This document shows, piece after piece, positions 5,722 through 34,376 of a stretch of DNA of 36,542 nucleotides (positions are counted from its first letter, which is position 1; each line of letters begins with the position of its first letter). The notes below the pieces were generated by a model. The model saw only the letters and a list, made by a program, of their open reading frames with translations, did no database searches and was not told the DNA's origin. A program made the position numbers and the translations under genes. The DNA comes from Thermodesulfobacteriota bacterium (GTDB lineage Bacteria; Desulfobacterota_D; UBA1144; Nemesobacterales; UBA2774), in the NCBI GenBank assembly GCA_035455615.1, contig DATIET010000249.1, positions 1-36,542 of the forward strand, read 5' to 3'.

Positions 5722-5822
5722 GGTCCTCATCCGAAAAGGCAAACCATCTGAAAAGGTGGGACGCAAAACCCGAGACCTAAGGGCTTAAAATGGCCTAAGG
5801 TAGACTGGTTACCGAAGTAGGG
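5722..5822 (+). promoter_or_regulatory. c-di-GMP-I (GEMM-I) riboswitch aptamer
   Basis: GGCAAACC (5738-5745). Hairpin CCATCT-GAAA-AGGTGG (5744-5759) with a GNRA loop. GACGCAAAACC (5760-5770). CCTAAG receptor-like element (5776-5781). GGTTACCGAAG (5807-5817). These match the conserved GEMM-I blocks as recalled from the Vc2 RNA. Confidence 0.75.
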
Positions 5823-5894: not shown

Positions 5895-7526
5895 ATGGGC
5901 GAGTATCTGAAATTCCTGATAATTGCCTTATTCACTATCTTCTCCGCATATAATTCGACGGGCGCGGAACTGACCACCGTTAAAGTAGCGGGGGGTTTCT
6001 CCGAGCCCCTCTACCTGACGTCCCCCGCGGGTGATACGAACCGCCTCTTCATAGTCGAACAGAGCTCGGCGACAATCAAGATAATAAAGAACGGAATCGT
6101 ACTCGCCGCGCCATTTTTAAATATCGACCCCAAGGTCGGAAGCGGCGGCGAAGGCGGCCTCCTCGGACTCGCGTTTCACCCGAATTATGCGTCAAACGGT
6201 TATTTCTACGTCAACTATACGGACAACTCCGGAGACACTGTCATCGCCCGCTACAAGGTTTCCGCAAACCCGGACGTCGCGGACCCGTCGAGCGAGCTGA
6301 TCGTGATGACCGTCGACCAGCCCTTTTCGAACCACAACGGAGGCATGCTCGCGTTCAGTCCGAACGACGACCACCTGTACATCGGCCTCGGGGACGGAGG
6401 GAGTTCTTTTGATCCGGGTAACAGGGCGCAGGACGGCGATACAGAGCTCGGGAAGATGCTGAGAATCGACGTCGGAAACGGAAATACGTTCACAGCCGCC
6501 GCGAACAACCCCTTCGACGACGACCCCGATTTCCTCGACACGATTTGGGCGCTGGGTTTTAGAAATCCGTGGCGGTTCAGCTTCGACAGGTTGAACGGCG
6601 ACCTCTACGTCGGGGACGTAGGACAGGGGGCGAAGGAGGAAATAAGCTTCCAGCCGGGGAACAGTCAGGGCGGGGAGAACTACGGCTGGCGGTGCATGGA
6701 AGGAAAAGACTGTACGGGCCTTTCCGGATGCACTTGCAATTCACCCGCTCTTACCATTCCACTACACGATTACACTCATTCCGGGGGGAATTGCTCCATA
6801 ACCGGAGGATATGTGTACAGGGGAGCGGCGATACCCGACCTGGACGGGACGTATTTCTTCGCCGATTTCTGTACGGGAAAGATATGGTCCTTCGTCAGGA
6901 GCGGCAGCACCGTATCCCAATTCACGGACCGTACTGCTGAGCTCAAGCCGATTACCGGAGAGACCATCAACAATATCTCGTCATTCGGCGAGGACGATAA
7001 GGGGGAGTTGTACATAGTCGACAGGGACGGGGAGATTTTCAAGATCGTGGACAAGAACTCAGTACCTCAACCCACGCCGGTTCCCACGCCCGTTCCCACA
7101 CCGGCGCCGACTCCTATACCTACCGCGCCCCCTTCAGCAAACGCTACCCTTTCCTCATTTAATCCGGGAACAGCCGGCGTCAGGAACTCCCTGACTGTTA
7201 CAGGGGCTCAGCGAGGGTCGATCGTCAGGTTCTACTATTCAAGGACCAACGGGACGACGACTATTTCATCCGGCGTATGCAGAGGGAAAGCCCTTAATAT
7301 GAGGTCGCCGGTCTCTCTCGGTTCCGCCGTCGCGGATTCGACAGGGAAAGCCACCATAAACGTCAGTCTGTCACGGAGTCTGGGCGGAAGGAAGCTTTAC
7401 GTGCAATCGAGAGTTGAGAGCTCGACCGCCTGCAAGATCACGAACCGCGTAACCCAAACAATCAAGCGAAGCTCTGGGGGCTTCGGCGGGGGCGGAGGAG
7501 GGTTCTTTTTCCCGTTTTTCAGATGA
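5895..7526 (+). CDS. secreted PQQ-dependent sugar (glucose/sorbosone) dehydrogenase-like beta-propeller protein with a Pro/Thr linker and a C-terminal beta-domain
   Basis: 543 aa. Signal peptide MGEYLKFLIIALFTIFSAYNSTGA. GSDH-family blocks GLLGLAFHP, SNHNGGMLAFSPND, LYIGLGDGG, GFRNPWRFSFD, GENYGWRCMEG. PT-rich linker PQPTPVPTPVPTPAPTPIPTAPP. Confidence 0.85.
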   Translation: MGEYLKFLIIALFTIFSAYNSTGAELTTVKVAGGFSEPLYLTSPAGDTNRLFIVEQSSATIKIIKNGIVLAAPFLNIDPKVGSGGEGGLLGLAFHPNYASNGYFYVNYTDNSGDTVIARYKVSANPDVADPSSELIVMTVDQPFSNHNGGMLAFSPNDDHLYIGLGDGGSSFDPGNRAQDGDTELGKMLRIDVGNGNTFTAAANNPFDDDPDFLDTIWALGFRNPWRFSFDRLNGDLYVGDVGQGAKEEISFQPGNSQGGENYGWRCMEGKDCTGLSGCTCNSPALTIPLHDYTHSGGNCSITGGYVYRGAAIPDLDGTYFFADFCTGKIWSFVRSGSTVSQFTDRTAELKPITGETINNISSFGEDDKGELYIVDRDGEIFKIVDKNSVPQPTPVPTPVPTPAPTPIPTAPPSANATLSSFNPGTAGVRNSLTVTGAQRGSIVRFYYSRTNGTTTISSGVCRGKALNMRSPVSLGSAVADSTGKATINVSLSRSLGGRKLYVQSRVESSTACKITNRVTQTIKRSSGGFGGGGGGFFFPFFR

Positions 7527-7679: not shown

Positions 7680-10761
<3,082 letters not shown>

Positions 10762-14588: not shown

Positions 14589-15355
14589 ACGCGATCCTGC
14601 TCTGCGCGGGCTTCGCGACGAGAATGTGGCCGCTCACGAAAGATTTGCCGAAAGCCCTCCTCAATGTCGGGGGCAAGCCTGTCATCGACCACCTGATCGC
14701 ACAAATACTCGATTTCAGTGGGCTTGATTCCATCGCAATCGTAACGAACGACCGCTTCTTCGGGCACTTTCTCGAGTGGGGCGAAAAGAACGGCGGGGCG
14801 GTAACGGAGCGGGGGATGAGCCTGCATATACTGAACGACGGAGTAGAACTGGCGGAGAAAAGGCTGGGCGCTGCGGGGGATCTCGGATTCGCGGTGAGCT
14901 GCGTCGCGGAGAGCAAAGGAACGGTCGTCGCGGCGGGCGACAACATCTTCCGCTTCCCGCTCGAGCCCTATTGGGAAAAATTCCTGAGCGGCGATAAGAG
15001 CTGCGTCCTCGCTCTTAAGACCGATGACGTGAAGAAGTTGAGAAAAACGGGGGTGCTCGAACTAGGCGAGGAGGACCGCGTTCTCGCATTCCATGAAAAG
15101 CCCGAGGCGCCGCCGTCAAACCTTGCATGCCCCGCACTTTACTTTCTTAAACCGGGAGCGCTCAATATTATTCATGCATACCTGTCGACGCCCGATGCGC
15201 GGGACGAGATCGGATACTTCATATCGTATCTGGCCAAACATGACGAAATATACGCCATTCGTGCCGAGGGTGAGGCGATAGACATAGGGACAGTCGAATC
15301 CTACGAGAGGGCAAAAAGAATACTATACGGGGAGCCTGTCATATACAAAGCTTGA
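14585..15355 (+). CDS. sugar-1-phosphate nucleotidyltransferase (NTP_transferase fold)
   Basis: The N-terminus MNAILLCAGFATRMWPLTKDLPKALLNVGGKPVIDHLI matches the G-x-G-T-R-x...K-P-x motif of RmlA/GlmU/MurU-type enzymes. Its start overlaps the kinase stop (ATGA at 14585-14588). Confidence 0.8.
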   Translation: MNAILLCAGFATRMWPLTKDLPKALLNVGGKPVIDHLIAQILDFSGLDSIAIVTNDRFFGHFLEWGEKNGGAVTERGMSLHILNDGVELAEKRLGAAGDLGFAVSCVAESKGTVVAAGDNIFRFPLEPYWEKFLSGDKSCVLALKTDDVKKLRKTGVLELGEEDRVLAFHEKPEAPPSNLACPALYFLKPGALNIIHAYLSTPDARDEIGYFISYLAKHDEIYAIRAEGEAIDIGTVESYERAKRILYGEPVIYKA

Positions 15356-15437
15356 CCGCGGCCCTAAGTCTCCTATCCGCATCCCGCAGGATATTGCGAA
15401 ATATTATAGTTATTGGCTTTTGTGAATTTTATAAATG

Positions 15438-15452
15438 TTTAGGTATGCTAAA
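15438..15452. promoter_or_regulatory. palindromic operator copy 1 (TTTAGGTATGCTAAA)
   Basis: Perfect 5-bp arms TTTAG/CTAAA around a 5-nt centre, immediately after a TATAAAT and 16 nt before the MarR-type start codon. It shares the 20-nt word TGTTTAGGTAnnCTAAATnT with copy 2. Confidence 0.6.
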
Positions 15453-15467
15453 TGTAAGGCAGAGTGT

Positions 15468-16085
15468 ATGTCCATTTTCGATCCTGTATACAGGCAGAAT
15501 AATATAGGCGGTCAGATAACGAGAACCCTGTTCCATATCGGACAGGCGGTAAAGAACCTCTTCTGGGATAAAAGCAGGCTCGAGCACCTTACGCCCGCCC
15601 AGGTAAAGTCACTCCTTTTCATCAATTACACCAGAAAAGACGCGATCACGATAGGGAATTTGGCGAGGTACCTGACCTGCACTCCGGCGACTGCGAGCGG
15701 CGTAATCGACTCGCTTGAAAGGAAAAACCTCATATTGAGGTCGCGGGGCCCTGAAGACAGGAGGAGGGTGCACATATCCCTCACGGCGGATGGGGTAAGG
15801 GTTGTCGGGGATATAGAAGATATCGGTTATGAAATCGAAGAAATAGTCAGGGAATTCGATCCCCAGGAACAGAAGATCCTTGAGAAGCTTTTACTCGCCA
15901 TTTCCGACAAACTCATGGAAAAGGGATTGATATTCTCGGGCGATATCTGTACAGAATGCTGTTTCTTCAAAAGAGACAGACACTTAGGAGAGCTTAAACC
16001 CCACTATTGTGAAAACCTTCACATACTCCTGAGCGAAGAAGAAATCTGTAAAGAATGCCCTCACTTCAAAAAAACTCTCAATTGA
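15468..16085 (+). CDS. MarR-family winged-helix regulator with a C-terminal six-cysteine module
   Basis: MarR wHTH: LTPAQVKSLLFI...ITIGNLARYL...ASGVIDSLERKNLILRSRGPEDRRRVHISLTADG. C-terminus: C-x2-C-C-x15-C-x12-C-x2-C. I start at ATG 15468 because ATG 15435 lies inside the operator. Confidence 0.75.
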   Translation: MSIFDPVYRQNNIGGQITRTLFHIGQAVKNLFWDKSRLEHLTPAQVKSLLFINYTRKDAITIGNLARYLTCTPATASGVIDSLERKNLILRSRGPEDRRRVHISLTADGVRVVGDIEDIGYEIEEIVREFDPQEQKILEKLLLAISDKLMEKGLIFSGDICTECCFFKRDRHLGELKPHYCENLHILLSEEEICKECPHFKKTLN

Positions 16086-16109
16086 TATTATAAATTTTTT
16101 TAGTATTAT
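16082..16109 (+). promoter_or_regulatory. putative promoter of the sigma-factor gene (TTGATA-16-TATTAT)
   Basis: -35 at 16082-16087 and -10 at 16104-16109. The predicted +1 falls inside operator copy 2. Confidence 0.4.
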
Positions 16110-16111
16110 TG

Positions 16112-16141
16112 TTTAGGTAGCCTAAATATTAGGTATACTAA
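16112..16141. promoter_or_regulatory. tandem palindromic operator copies 2 and 3
   Basis: TTTAGGTAGCCTAAA (16112-16126) and TTAGGTATACTAA (16129-16141), with centres 16 bp apart, between the MarR stop and the sigma-factor start. Confidence 0.6.
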
Positions 16142-16172
16142 GCATTAAATTCGTACAGGGAATTTAACCGCC

Positions 16173-17288
16173 ATGAAGCTAAAGCAGCTGGAATACATAG
16201 ACGACGAAAGCGACCTCGAGAGCCCGGACCTCGACACGGAAGACTTATCGGACGAAGAGGATTTTTCCGGTTATGAAGAAGGGGAGCCTGAAGAGGAAAA
16301 ACCCGGGGGTAAGTTTTTCAAAAGCGGTAGGGATATTACCGACCCCAATTACAGGCTGCTCTACGCATATTTTAAAGAGCTCAACGATGAGACACTGCTC
16401 AGCAAGCGGGACGAAGCGGTTCTCGCGGCAAAGATAAAGTTTTGCGAAACCAGGGCGAAAAAAATCACGGGGCGTTTAAATAATAAACCAAAGCGGGGGA
16501 ACGGAACCCCGCCGAGGGACGAGAGTATACTCGACGCCCTCGGCAGGTCATATACCGCAAGGTCGAAGCAGTTTCAGGATAAGTTCATCAAGTCTAACCT
16601 GAGACTCGTAATCGAGCTCGCAAACAAATACACCGGGAGGGGGCTGCCTCTCACGGACTTGATCCAGGAAGGGAACATCGGCCTCATGAAGGCAGTAACG
16701 AAATTCGACCATACGAAGGGATTCAAGTTCTCCACGTACGCATCATGGTGGATACACCAGTCTTTATCCAGAGCCGTGATGGAGCAGACGCATATAATAC
16801 TCATACCGGTTTATCTGCAGGAGCTGGCTGCGAAGGTATTCAGGGCAAAAGCGAAGCTCGAACACAATACGGATAAGAACGCGATGCCCGAGCAGATCGC
16901 AAATGAAACGAATATCCCCATCGATGCCGTAAGCACGATACTAAAGGGAAACGATCTCGTAGTGCCCCTCGAGCTCCTTCCCGGGAACGAGGATTCCAAA
17001 TCATATCTCGATATCACGTCCGACCCCAACGCCAAGAGGCCCGAATATTATCTGACACTCCGGTCGATCAACGACGAGGTCAGGGACTCGCTCGAATTAT
17101 TATCCGAGAGGGAGAAGGACGTGCTCATGATGAGGTTCGGGATCGATTATGAAAACGACCACAAGCTCGAGCAGATTGCGGACAAGTACGGCCTAAGCCG
17201 GGAGAGGATCAGGCAGATCGAAAAGGACGCCCTCACCAAACTGGCGGGCTCCGAGCGAAGTGGAGTGCTGAGGGAATTTTTGAATTAA
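16173..17288 (+). CDS. sigma-70-family RNA polymerase sigma factor (RpoD/RpoS-like domain set, divergent)
   Basis: 371 aa with an acidic N-terminus. Region 2: NLRLVIELANKYTGRGLPLTDLIQEGNIGLMKAVTKFDHTKGFKFSTYASWWI. Region 4.2: LEQIADKYGLSRERIRQIEKDALTKL. Confidence 0.9.
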   Translation: MKLKQLEYIDDESDLESPDLDTEDLSDEEDFSGYEEGEPEEEKPGGKFFKSGRDITDPNYRLLYAYFKELNDETLLSKRDEAVLAAKIKFCETRAKKITGRLNNKPKRGNGTPPRDESILDALGRSYTARSKQFQDKFIKSNLRLVIELANKYTGRGLPLTDLIQEGNIGLMKAVTKFDHTKGFKFSTYASWWIHQSLSRAVMEQTHIILIPVYLQELAAKVFRAKAKLEHNTDKNAMPEQIANETNIPIDAVSTILKGNDLVVPLELLPGNEDSKSYLDITSDPNAKRPEYYLTLRSINDEVRDSLELLSEREKDVLMMRFGIDYENDHKLEQIADKYGLSRERIRQIEKDALTKLAGSERSGVLREFLN

Positions 17289-31550: not shown

Positions 31551-34376
31551 TCAAAGTATTTTCGCCAGCCTGTTAATACCGCGTACAACGTTTTCACCCA
31601 GATGGAACGTAATGACCTTGCGCTTCCGGTCTAGCAGCGCCTGGCGGTCGCCGAGCGCCTCGGCGTCTTTAAATACGCCGAAGGTTATGGACGAGGCCTT
31701 CTTGCCCGGCTCGTCCGGGATCGGTATATCGACGGGCATATCGGACGTGAACTGAATGAAGAGACCGTGCCCCGCGTCTCCCTTATGGAGCTGCCCTGTT
31801 GAATGGAGGAACCTCGGACCGAACCCTACGGTCGTGGCCAGTCGGTACTGCCTCTCCACCTTGGTCCGGAGCTTCTGGAGAGCGTTATACGTCTCGTCCG
31901 ATGGCTTGACAAAGGCCTGGAACGCGACGTAGCTCCTTCCCTTCGATTCGTCCCTGCCTGGTTTGGCGAAGGAGAGGAACTTCGTAAGCGCCTGCTCGAG
32001 GCTCCCGGCTTTAAAATCGGAATAGACCGTTATTTCCGACTCTCTGAGGGTCGGCTTTACGACCGGCAGCTTACCTTTTTTCTGGTACTCGGCTATCATC
32101 TTGCGCGCGAGCACCTTGGCAGCCTCCACGTTCGGCTGGTTGAAGGGGTGAATGCCGATTATCATGCCGGCGACGGCGATAGCCATCTCCCACCTGAAGA
32201 ACTCGCCCCCCAGGTCGTAGATATCCCTGAGATTGATACGCACCACCGGATAGTCCGCTTTCTCAAGGGCATTCACCTGCCTGTCGTACGTGTCGTCATT
32301 TAAGAGGCGGAGGTAAACGAAGAGCCTGTCGTTCGCATAGAATTCCGGCTGCGCCAGAGGCTCCCTGTCGACGGGGAGGATGCCCTTCCCGTCCTTACCG
32401 GTGCTCTCGGCTATCAGCTGCTCGACCCAGGAGCCGAAGCCTGCTATCGGCGGGGAAGCGACGAGTGTGACTTTATCGCGCCCTGCCCTGGCAAGCTCCC
32501 CGAGTATCGCCCCCAGCCAGGCGCCCGAATTGTCCCCGTCAACGGCGCAGTTGCAGCTTTCGCAGTTGTGGAGCATGGTGACGGCGCGGGCGAGCAGCGT
32601 GTCGAGGTCAACACCCTGGAAAGCTGCGGGTGGTATCCCTACGAACGAGAGGGCGGAGTATCGTCCGCCGATATTGGGATCGTTTAAGAACGTTTTTCTG
32701 AATTTAAGCCCCGCTGCGATCTTCTGGAGACCGCTCCCGGGGTCCGTAATGGCAATGAAGTGCCGTCCCGCATCTTTCTTGCCGACTTCCTTCAAAACCT
32801 CGTTGTAGAAGTATTTCATGAACGACATGGTCTCCGCCGTGCCCCCCGATTTGGTGGAGACGATGAAGAGCGTCTTCGACATATCGAGGCGGTCCCTCTG
32901 TTCGAGCACGGCCCCGGGGTCCGTGCTGTCGAGCACCGCCACGTCGAGATAGCCCTTTTTGACGCCGAAGGTCTCGCGTATAACCAGAGGGGCGAGACTC
33001 GAACCGCCCATTCCCATGAGAAGCACGTTCTTATAACCGTCGGCCTTTACATCGGCGACCACTTTTTTTATACCCGGAAGGGCGTCAACCATTACTTCCG
33101 GTATGTGGAGCCATCCGAGACGGTTGCTTATCTCGGTCGGGTCGTCTTCCCAGACCATGTAATCGAAGTTCCAGATCTTTTGTATGATATTGTTGTCACG
33201 CATGTTCTCAAGCGCCTTGTCGACCGCGGCCTGGTACTTTCCGAGTGAGGCGGAATAGGGCTTTTTCTGGGACTGTATCTGCACCTTCTTTTGCTCTATG
33301 CTCGCCATGAGTGTCCTGAAGGAATCGGCGAACTGGTCTACCCCGTCCCTGAGCAGCTTGTTCGTCACCGACTTTAAATTTATGCCGAGCTTCCCAAGCT
33401 TTTCTACGTCCTGTCTCGCCTGATTTACGCCCCTCGTGATCGTGAGAGCGACCTTCCCGTGATCCCTGAAGTTCTTGTATGTGGCAGGCGGTACCGTGTT
33501 TACGGTATCCGGCCCTATGAGCTCGTCGACGTAGAGCGTATCGGGATAAGCCGGGTTTTTCGTGCTGGTGCTCGCCCAGAGGCATCTCTGCACCCTAGCC
33601 CCCGCGTCCGAGAGCTTCTTCCAGCGCTTGCCTTTGAATATCCTCCTGAATTCGTCGTACGCGAGCTTCGCGTTCGCAATCGCGATCTTCCCCTGAAGCG
33701 CGGTGTTACCGATCTTCTCGAGCTCGGGGTCGATGGCGGTATCCACACGGCTTACGAAAAATGAAGCTACGGAGGCCACCCTGTCCACCCGGTGTCCCTT
33801 GAATACGGAGGGGCCTTCGGCTGCAAGTTTTTCGAGACCCTTTATATACGCCTCGGCCACGGCTTTATACTGATCGAGGCTGAACATCAGTGTTACGTTC
33901 ACGTTGATACCGGCCCCAATGAGCTCAGTGATGGCAGGGATGCCGGCTTTGGTCGCGGGGACCTTGATCATGACGTTCGGGCGCCCTAGAGTGACGAAAT
34001 ACCTCCTGGCTTCCCTGATAGTGCCGTTCGTATCGTTAGCCAGGGTCGGGCTCACCTCGAGACTTATGAACCCGTCGCCGCCGTTCGTTTTATCGTAGAG
34101 CGGCCTGAAAAGGTCGGCGGCCATCGCGATGTCCTTCAAGGCGAGCGCCTCGTATATCTCGTCTGCGGATTTATTCTGCTCCACCAGGGACTTCAACTCT
34201 TCATCGTAATCGGAGCTCCCGGCTATGGCTTTTTCGAGTATCGAGGGGTTCGAGGTTTCGCCCCTCAGTCCTTCGTCTATGAGGGCATTGAGCTCCCCCG
34301 AGGTCAAGAAGGACCTCCTTATATAATCGTACCAGATCGACTGGCCGAGCTTGGATAAATCCGTTATTCTGGACAT
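31551..34376 (-). CDS. bifunctional transaldolase / glucose-6-phosphate isomerase fusion
   Basis: 941 aa. The N-terminal ~360 aa look like transaldolase (SIWYDYIRR, GETSNPSILEKAI, VMIKVPAT). The C-terminal ~570 aa look like PGI (MGMGGSSLAP, STKSGGTAET, IGGRYSALS). Confidence 0.9.
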   Translation of the reverse strand: MSRITDLSKLGQSIWYDYIRRSFLTSGELNALIDEGLRGETSNPSILEKAIAGSSDYDEELKSLVEQNKSADEIYEALALKDIAMAADLFRPLYDKTNGGDGFISLEVSPTLANDTNGTIREARRYFVTLGRPNVMIKVPATKAGIPAITELIGAGINVNVTLMFSLDQYKAVAEAYIKGLEKLAAEGPSVFKGHRVDRVASVASFFVSRVDTAIDPELEKIGNTALQGKIAIANAKLAYDEFRRIFKGKRWKKLSDAGARVQRCLWASTSTKNPAYPDTLYVDELIGPDTVNTVPPATYKNFRDHGKVALTITRGVNQARQDVEKLGKLGINLKSVTNKLLRDGVDQFADSFRTLMASIEQKKVQIQSQKKPYSASLGKYQAAVDKALENMRDNNIIQKIWNFDYMVWEDDPTEISNRLGWLHIPEVMVDALPGIKKVVADVKADGYKNVLLMGMGGSSLAPLVIRETFGVKKGYLDVAVLDSTDPGAVLEQRDRLDMSKTLFIVSTKSGGTAETMSFMKYFYNEVLKEVGKKDAGRHFIAITDPGSGLQKIAAGLKFRKTFLNDPNIGGRYSALSFVGIPPAAFQGVDLDTLLARAVTMLHNCESCNCAVDGDNSGAWLGAILGELARAGRDKVTLVASPPIAGFGSWVEQLIAESTGKDGKGILPVDREPLAQPEFYANDRLFVYLRLLNDDTYDRQVNALEKADYPVVRINLRDIYDLGGEFFRWEMAIAVAGMIIGIHPFNQPNVEAAKVLARKMIAEYQKKGKLPVVKPTLRESEITVYSDFKAGSLEQALTKFLSFAKPGRDESKGRSYVAFQAFVKPSDETYNALQKLRTKVERQYRLATTVGFGPRFLHSTGQLHKGDAGHGLFIQFTSDMPVDIPIPDEPGKKASSITFGVFKDAEALGDRQALLDRKRKVITFHLGENVVRGINRLAKIL

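Follow-up and report, generated by a model that had tools for sequence, protein, structure and literature searches.

Three copies of a short palindrome, found in a 36,542-nucleotide stretch of DNA from a Thermodesulfobacteriota bacterium (assembly GCA_035455615.1, contig DATIET010000249.1; the whole stretch is called the window below), are very probably the DNA-binding sites of a neighbouring MarR-type regulator, as judged from sequence comparison. One copy precedes the regulator gene, and two stand in tandem between that gene and a gene for a sigma-70-family factor. The sites are conserved in related loci and follow the regulator gene across phyla. The best explanation, to which a probability of about 0.8 is given, is that the regulator represses both its own gene and the sigma-factor gene through these three operators, and that repression is relieved by a signal to a C-terminal domain with four cysteines. 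An earlier note on the same DNA had proposed that a MarR-type dimer autoregulates and gates the adjacent sigma factor; comparative evidence supports this proposal, in that both site positions and the gene order are kept and distant members of the regulator family have sites of their own.

The palindrome in the window and in related loci

A fresh reading of the sequence finds the three copies, here termed operators 1 to 3, where the earlier note had placed them, with the same distance between the second and the third (Table 1). Both strands of the window were searched with TTAGGTANNCTAA, allowing one mismatch, and with exact TTAGNNNNNCTAA. Each search returned three matches, which are the three operators, against shuffle means of 0.28 and 0.34, respectively, and three matches were reached in 0 of 100 shuffles with either pattern; the full palindrome thus occurs nowhere else in the window, as had been judged by eye. 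Perfect 6-3-6 symmetry (TTTAGG/CCTAAA) is seen in copy 2 alone; in copies 1 and 3 the arms match fully over TTAG/CTAA and no further. Copies 1 and 2 have in common the longer direct word TGTTTAGGTAnnCTAAATnT. The initial description of TTAG/CTAA arms around a 5-nucleotide centre holds for all copies, and the related loci refine it to an underlying consensus of TTAGG-N3-CCTAA.

Table 1. Positions of the features discussed, in the numbering of the window
Feature	Position	Strand	Description
Possible -10 (TATAAAT) of regulator promoter	15430..15436	+	Candidate element, read from the sequence; -35 weak or absent
Operator 1	15438..15452	.	TTTAGGTATGCTAAA; 16 nucleotides 5' of the regulator start codon, directly after TATAAAT-G
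Regulator gene	15468..16085	+	205 residues: MarR winged-helix core (about residues 1-152) and C-terminal four-cysteine domain (about 155-205)
Predicted sigma-70-type promoter of the sigma-factor gene	16082..16109	+	TTGATA-16-TATTAT; 10/12 matches in a consensus promoter scan
Conserved A/T tract	16092..16101	.	AAATTTTTTT; consensus A5-7 T3-5; inside the predicted promoter spacer
Operator 2	16112..16126	.	TTTAGGTAGCCTAAA; perfect 6-3-6; 2 nucleotides after the -10 hexamer, over the expected transcription start
Operator 3	16129..16141	.	TTAGGTATACTAA; weaker site; centre 16 base pairs from the centre of operator 2
Target gene, sigma-70-family factor	16173..17288	+	371 residues; Pfam Sigma70_r2, r3 and r4; region 1.2-like stretch; acidic, variable N-terminus

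The nearest genomes are metagenome-assembled genomes of Candidatus Dadabacteria. Orthologous loci were taken from a scan of species-representative genomes (20 loci) and from metagenome contigs (32 loci), with regulator identities of 50-98%. A sigma gene follows the regulator in 19/19 informative genome loci (regulator identity 52-97%), and in the closer loci the pair is flanked by galK upstream and ispH downstream. With up to one mismatch to TTAGGNNNCCTAA, a site is present in 36/36 unique intergenic regions after the regulator stop codon and in 38/43 unique regions before the regulator, so that the comparison of orthologous MarR-sigma pairs proposed in the earlier note ends with the palindrome kept at both positions. 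A second downstream TTAG-N5-CTAA (up to one mismatch) lies exactly 16 base pairs further on in 31 of the 36 unique regions; a counterpart of operator 3 is absent in L017-L019, the most distant loci of the Dadabacteria type. Among 21 unique copy-2 sequences, TTAGG/CCTAA is invariant save for a single departure, at position five of the left arm. When the unique regions are aligned (34 downstream, 33 upstream), the arms are fixed or almost so, the three central bases are free and the flanking intergenic DNA has largely diverged. Because both arms are conserved and the centre is free, a dimeric DNA-binding protein, and not an RNA stem or a pair of promoter hexamers, is indicated as the reader of the site. 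In 294 kb of DNA (the window and the loci), 122 matches with up to one mismatch fall at the two expected positions and 11 elsewhere, of which 5 are the same two positions in partial loci.

The single-cell genome of Desulfobacterota bacterium AH_259_B03_O07 has two regulator-sigma pairs (L017 and L019), each with an upstream and a downstream palindrome; since each carries its own palindromes, the regulator-sigma module appears to have been duplicated as a unit. In L032 an extra operator-like site, TTAGGTATACTAA, stands at 2818-2830, about 670 base pairs downstream of the sigma gene, after a truncated reverse-transcriptase-like open reading frame (ORF) and a 27-nucleotide direct repeat and before a small ORF with two CxxC-type motifs. 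This site may be an additional target in that genome.

The same site is found beside much more distant relatives of the regulator. Eleven such contexts were collected, with regulators 21-30% identical to that of the window apart from one at 36%, from genomes with 56-76% G+C, and in none of the eleven does a sigma gene adjoin the regulator. Here TTAGGAGTCCTAA or TTAGGATTCCTAA occurs 12-33 nucleotides ahead of the regulator start, between divergent genes, or in front of the gene that follows. For TTAGGAGTCCTAA the distance before the regulator start is -17 (L053, L057), -12 (L060) or -33 (L063), and TTAGTAGTCCTAA is found at -12 in L054. Two sites 15 base pairs apart occupy the divergent region that the L058 regulator shares with a truncated-globin gene, further sites precede the next downstream gene in L054, L059 and L063, and the relaxed variants GTAGGTATCCTAC and TTCGGGGTCCGAA precede the first gene of protoglobin operons that end in the regulator (L055/L056, L061). 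Over 59.7 kb in ten distinct loci there are five exact matches against 0.003 expected, and nine with up to one mismatch against 0.21. Because the site is found across phyla beside members that have no sigma neighbour, it follows the regulator subfamily and not the sigma gene. Of the evidence obtainable without a binding assay, this co-occurrence argues most strongly that the palindrome is a site at which the regulator would bind.

A MarR core with an appended four-cysteine domain

All of 77 regulator homologues are 196-205 residues long or are fragments, and 19 closer homologues of 20 aligned begin with MSIFDP, the outlier at 36% identity starting with MD. From these lengths and starts the regulator start is placed at 15468, which agrees with the earlier choice of this codon over the one at 15435. 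Membership of the MarR family is clear from Pfam, with PF01047 at 47.9 bits (cut-off 24.6) and PF12802 at 27.8 (cut-off 27). The protein falls far below the NCBIfam models for AdcR (NF038251; 23.2 bits vs 175) and OhrR (21 vs a cut-off of 200). An AlphaFold2 (AF2) model built on a 94-sequence alignment has a predicted local distance difference test score (pLDDT) of 91.5; Foldseek aligns the model with MepR, MexR, ST1710, SlyA and MarR over about 135 residues, at target-normalised TM-scores of up to 0.84, which supports a predicted MarR fold, and a search with the whole regulator model returned MarR cores only. At the start of the recognition helix and in the wing, T75, D97 and R99 are kept in at least 90% of 94 family sequences. 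The conserved palindrome stands, in Dadabacteria and beside the distant members alike, at the place expected for MarR autoregulation.

The best solved relative is MepR of Staphylococcus aureus (PDB 4LLL, 4LLN), both by profile (E = 8e-23) and by fold, at an identity of only about 26%. MepR is a repressor whose operators are inverted repeats of the form GTTAG-N4-CTAAC; one repeat covers the -10 and the transcription start of the mepR promoter, two adjoining repeats lie at the mepA promoter, and four residues at the beginning of the recognition helix, T60, G61, P62 and T63, determine the choice of TTAG (PMC3936728). In a pairwise alignment these four residues fall on T72-P73-A74-T75 of the window regulator, and an Asp-x-Arg-Arg wing is common to both proteins. 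The layout is likewise shared, with TTAG...CTAA repeats, one operator at the regulator and two at the target (the latter in 31/36 unique loci here). The half-sites, however, are spaced as TTAG-N5-CTAA here and as TTAG-N4-CTAA in MepR, and the flanking base differs, so the GTTAG-N4-CTAAC signature is not found; the target is a sigma factor here and a MATE efflux pump there; and the window regulator ends in some 50 additional residues, a four-cysteine domain without counterpart in MepR or in any PDB chain. This extra domain and the sigma-factor target make a cationic drug unlikely as the inducer.

It is this domain that the MarR-type label of the earlier note had missed: the MarR profiles are matched, as the label implies, but the protein is not a plain MarR. 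The cysteines follow the pattern C-x2-C-x16-C-x15-C, with Pro-His before the third. C161, C164, P178, H179, C181 and C197 are invariant in the Dadabacteria alignment; in the 94 family sequences strict invariance is limited to C161, C164 and H179, with P178, C181 and C197 found in at least 90%. The tail matched nothing in Pfam and NCBIfam (at their cut-offs) or among PDB sequences, and weak hits to a C-type lectin (E = 0.02) and to DUF1284 (E = 0.03) look like chance. A profile of the tail, run against 1.84 billion cluster representatives, found 225 proteins; among the 150 tail matches listed, the domain is nearly always C-terminal, mostly in proteins of about 200-230 residues, and 28 of 30 sampled tail-domain proteins matched MarR profiles. 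The resulting four-cysteine MarR family, of about 200 residues, extends to Acidobacteriota, to Gaiellaceae and other Actinomycetota, and to Chloroflexota (Dehalococcoidia), where its members carry generic names such as 'MarR family winged helix-turn-helix transcriptional regulator'. In the AF2 model from 94 sequences the tail is a small beta-rich module (pLDDT about 90). The four cysteines and the Pro-His suggest a zinc or iron-sulfur site. The domain is likely to be the signal input of the regulator, and a sensor role for it is plausible.

Globin, protoglobin or truncated-globin genes lie no more than two genes away in 5 of 10 distinct distant contexts. Globin-type neighbours occur in L053, L055/L056, L057, L058, L060 and L061; the regulator is downstream of, or overlaps, a protoglobin gene in three contexts (L055/L056, L060 and L061), and in one it diverges from a truncated haemoglobin with two operators between. 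The gene right after the regulator in L053 (3691-3930) and L057 (3692-3931) encodes a 79-residue protein starting MKKKATFFHAGCPVC, a CxxC motif of the thioredoxin or glutaredoxin kind, and is another redox-flavoured neighbour. L064 holds a distant paralogue of the four-cysteine MarR, P0286 (about 25% identity), with a degenerate site, TTCGTAGCCCTAA, 31 nucleotides before its start, and may represent a second member of the family in Dadabacteria.

Among characterised regulators, Corynebacterium ArnR carries a C-terminal [4Fe-4S] cluster, represses the flavohaemoglobin gene hmp and loses DNA binding on exposure to nitric oxide (PMC12343034). ArnR and SufR (cyanobacterial or actinobacterial) have the architecture of the window regulator, in which an N-terminal winged helix of MarR/ArsR type is followed by a dimerisation helix and then by a C-terminal domain with cysteines, whose sensory role is presumed for the window regulator, and ArnR shares the globin-type link, as many four-cysteine MarR members adjoin globin genes. 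ArnR, however, has three conserved cysteines (C179, C193 and C223) and not the C-x2-C-x16-C-x15-C pattern with its invariant Pro-His, and the resemblance to ArnR and SufR is a functional analogy only, drawn from descriptions. OhrR, MgrA/SarZ and AdcR/ZitR have in common with the window regulator a MarR core; they control their own genes through palindromic operators and sense by way of cysteines or metal, as is proposed for the window regulator, but their sensing residues lie inside the MarR core or dimer interface, in contrast to the appended domain here. A 2024 review counts no MarR metalloregulators as characterised beyond AdcR/ZitR, which sense zinc (PMC11672702). A bolder and rather doubtful extension is that an iron-sulfur cluster, or some other metal or thiol centre with redox activity, sits in the tail, and that the family forms a new sensor class among MarR proteins, spread across phyla, which detects gases or redox state and has one operator and, usually, globin partners; in Dadabacteria it would have been rewired to gate a sigma-70-type factor, such that one oxygen, nitric oxide or redox signal could switch a whole transcription programme.

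Promoter positions, the proposed circuit and rival explanations

The TTGATA-16-TATTAT promoter that had been read before the sigma-factor gene was recovered by the promoter scan, its TTGATA overlapping the regulator stop codon. In the window the arrangement TATTAT-TG-TTTAGG puts operator 2 at about -5 to +10 of this predicted promoter, and operator 3 in its early transcribed region. A TAnnnT hexamer ends 0-5 nucleotides before TTTAGG in 27 of the 36 unique orthologous downstream regions, and exactly 2 nucleotides before it in 21. The same spacing recurs at the regulator gene in the window, as TATAAA-TG-TTTAGG, where the promoter evidence is weaker. Sites placed in this way, next to or across a -10-like hexamer and the presumed point of initiation, agree with repression, so far as predicted promoters allow. 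An alternative promoter, with its -35 in operator 2 and its -10 (TATACT) in operator 3, fits L001-L012 only and fails in L013-L016 and L032-L041, and is considered a minor possibility.

Two further elements accompany the sites. In 34 unique downstream regions the A/T tract in the predicted promoter spacer has an information content as high as that of the operator arms; AAATTTTTTT is self-complementary, lies 11-20 nucleotides upstream of operator 2 and keeps this position in L001-L048. It could be a bend in the DNA, an UP-like element or the site of a second protein. At the regulator gene, the block GTGAATTTTAWAAAWG (window 15421-15437) abuts operator 1 on its upstream side, is kept in the closer clades L001-L012, L021-L029 and L045, and is unlike a standard -35/-10 pair.

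Taken with the MarR core, these positions suggest the following circuit. A dimer of the regulator would bind TTAGG-N3-CCTAA through its winged helix-turn-helix, reading TTAG half-sites as in MepR. One dimer would occupy the regulator's own promoter, and two, 16 base pairs apart, would lie directly after the -10 of the sigma promoter and over the transcription start. The bound protein would then block RNA polymerase at both promoters, an occlusion that is inferred from the site positions and the MepR-like layout. A signal at the four-cysteine domain would release the protein, and the sigma factor would be made. That signal would most likely act through a metal centre or thiol chemistry responding to oxygen, nitric oxide or redox state. 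Binding, repression, the promoter positions and the nature of the signal are thus deductions from the comparative evidence.

Several points weigh against this account. The promoters are predictions from sequence. TATAAAT does precede copy 1, as the earlier note had said; it is without the usual final T of a -10 hexamer, and the plus-strand promoter scan scored no sigma-70 match for the regulator's own promoter. A strict TAnnnT hexamer stands just before the site in only 8 of 38 upstream sites. In the clade L008-L012 and L026 the -10 before operator 2 is poor, and TATACT inside operator 3 could serve instead. The motif scan, with respect to the regulon, covered the window and the fetched flanks, and further targets may lie elsewhere in the genome. 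The tail was disordered (pLDDT below 50) in an AF2 model from 20 sequences, and its cysteines may do no more than hold a structural zinc, with no part in sensing. Finally, no literature was found on the four-cysteine MarR family or its operator, including binding or expression of any member, in a search of papers outside the subscription journals.

Some MarR proteins with TTAG-type sites, namely SlyA and RovA, counter silencing, and it is conceivable, though improbable, that the regulator binds these sites but activates, or acts both ways, by recruiting RNA polymerase or by displacing a silencer as they do. SlyA/RovA structures are among the fold hits of the regulator model; in clade L008-L012 the sole good -10-like hexamer (TATACT) is inside operator 3, with the TTTAGG of operator 2 placed 16 nucleotides upstream; and the conserved upstream A/T tract could be an UP-like or bent element. 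However, in most clades the -10-like hexamer ends exactly 2 nucleotides before operator 2 (21/36), so that bound protein would cover the start. The distant members point the same way: their site immediately follows boxes resembling TATATA or CATAAT and precedes the start codon by 12-17 nucleotides, a position typical of repressors, and MepR, the closest relative, represses with the same layout. The identity of the binding protein may also be questioned. Several MarR proteins, MepR and SlyA among them, recognise half-sites of the TTAG/CTAA type, so a paralogue could share them, and AH_259_B03_O07 has its two regulator-sigma pairs. Yet the motif accompanies the four-cysteine MarR gene across unrelated neighbourhoods and in phyla of very different base composition, and it is almost absent elsewhere in the 294 kb and in 60 kb of flanking DNA. 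That another regulator, for example a global one, binds the palindromes and that their adjacency to the MarR gene is incidental is accordingly rated a small chance, below that of activation.

Smaller still is the chance that the palindromes work at the RNA level, as hairpins in 5' leaders that influence stability, attenuation or translation, rather than as sites in the DNA. The segment 16108-16175 does fold at -17.2 kcal/mol (z = -2.9), with operator 2 alone at -5.0 kcal/mol, but the region of copy 1 folds no better than shuffles (z = 0.02), so that folding is significant only at the tandem palindromes. The arms are conserved in sequence, with neither compensatory changes nor covariation between them; the same AT-rich words are kept in genomes of 70% G+C; a transcript that starts inside operator 2 would hold an incomplete hairpin; and no Rfam family matched in 15300-16300, even at E = 1, which also sets aside a known RNA element there. 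Least credible of all is that the sigma factor next door recognises the repeated word as part of its promoters, in a loop of positive autoregulation. Copies 1 and 2 do share their longer word, and both precede genes of the pair; the conserved unit, however, is a dyad with a free centre and not a -35/-10 pair. A promoter motif of the sigma factor itself is ruled out, because distant members of the family have the same dyad beside them but no sigma gene in the vicinity. Repression by the neighbouring MarR-type regulator therefore remains the explanation favoured here.

The sigma factor, its surroundings and the meaning of the proposed circuit

The sigma factor falls below every NCBIfam cut-off for RpoD and RpoS. 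Against TIGR02393 (RpoD_Cterm) it scores 244 bits for a cut-off of 354, and against full-length RpoD models 212-260 for cut-offs of 555-582. A second group of sigma factors, of about 396 residues and 40-45% identity, from similarly named metagenome bins, scores 281-289 bits, also below the RpoD cut-off; because this group fails too, the cut-off does not separate primary from alternative sigma factors here. Some orthologues bear the IMG label 'nonessential primary-like', the other names being generic. The sigma factor diverges faster than the neighbouring ispH (58-68% identity where ispH has 79-85%), and no dnaG was seen next to the sigma gene. The assignment leans towards an alternative, group-2-like sigma factor.

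The neighbours in the window are ordinary chromosomal genes: galactokinase-like, nucleotidyl transferase, carbonic anhydrase, ispH, ThiC and transketolase. The ThiC gene (7680-10049, minus strand) is long, at 789 residues, and some 170 extra residues at the N-terminus precede its ThiC-associated domain. At 31551-34376 (minus strand) a 941-residue ORF fuses transaldolase and phosphoglucose-isomerase domains. A cyclic di-GMP-I riboswitch aptamer (RF01051; 72.8 bits, E = 1.3e-12) at 5728-5816 on the plus strand lies upstream of a 543-residue glucose/sorbosone-dehydrogenase-like gene (5895-7526).

As wiring, the proposed scheme is textbook, a MarR repressor acting through palindromic operators at two promoters, its own and a neighbour's, and the MepR system is a close precedent for the architecture. 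What appears to be new is the MarR subfamily itself, which spans phyla, carries the added four-cysteine domain and seems uncharacterised, together with the single operator used throughout that family and, in Dadabacteria, a sigma-70-type factor as the target. Should the tail hold a metal or redox centre, a sensor class would be added to the MarR family, together with an operator suited to reporter design. Dadabacteria are uncultured, and to our knowledge nothing is known of gene regulation in them. A regulator-operator pair on a sigma-factor gene, predicted with high confidence, thus offers a testable entry point to their regulation, and if the proposed circuit is true, a one-component sensor that directly controls a sigma-70-type factor would link a chemical signal to a whole transcription programme.

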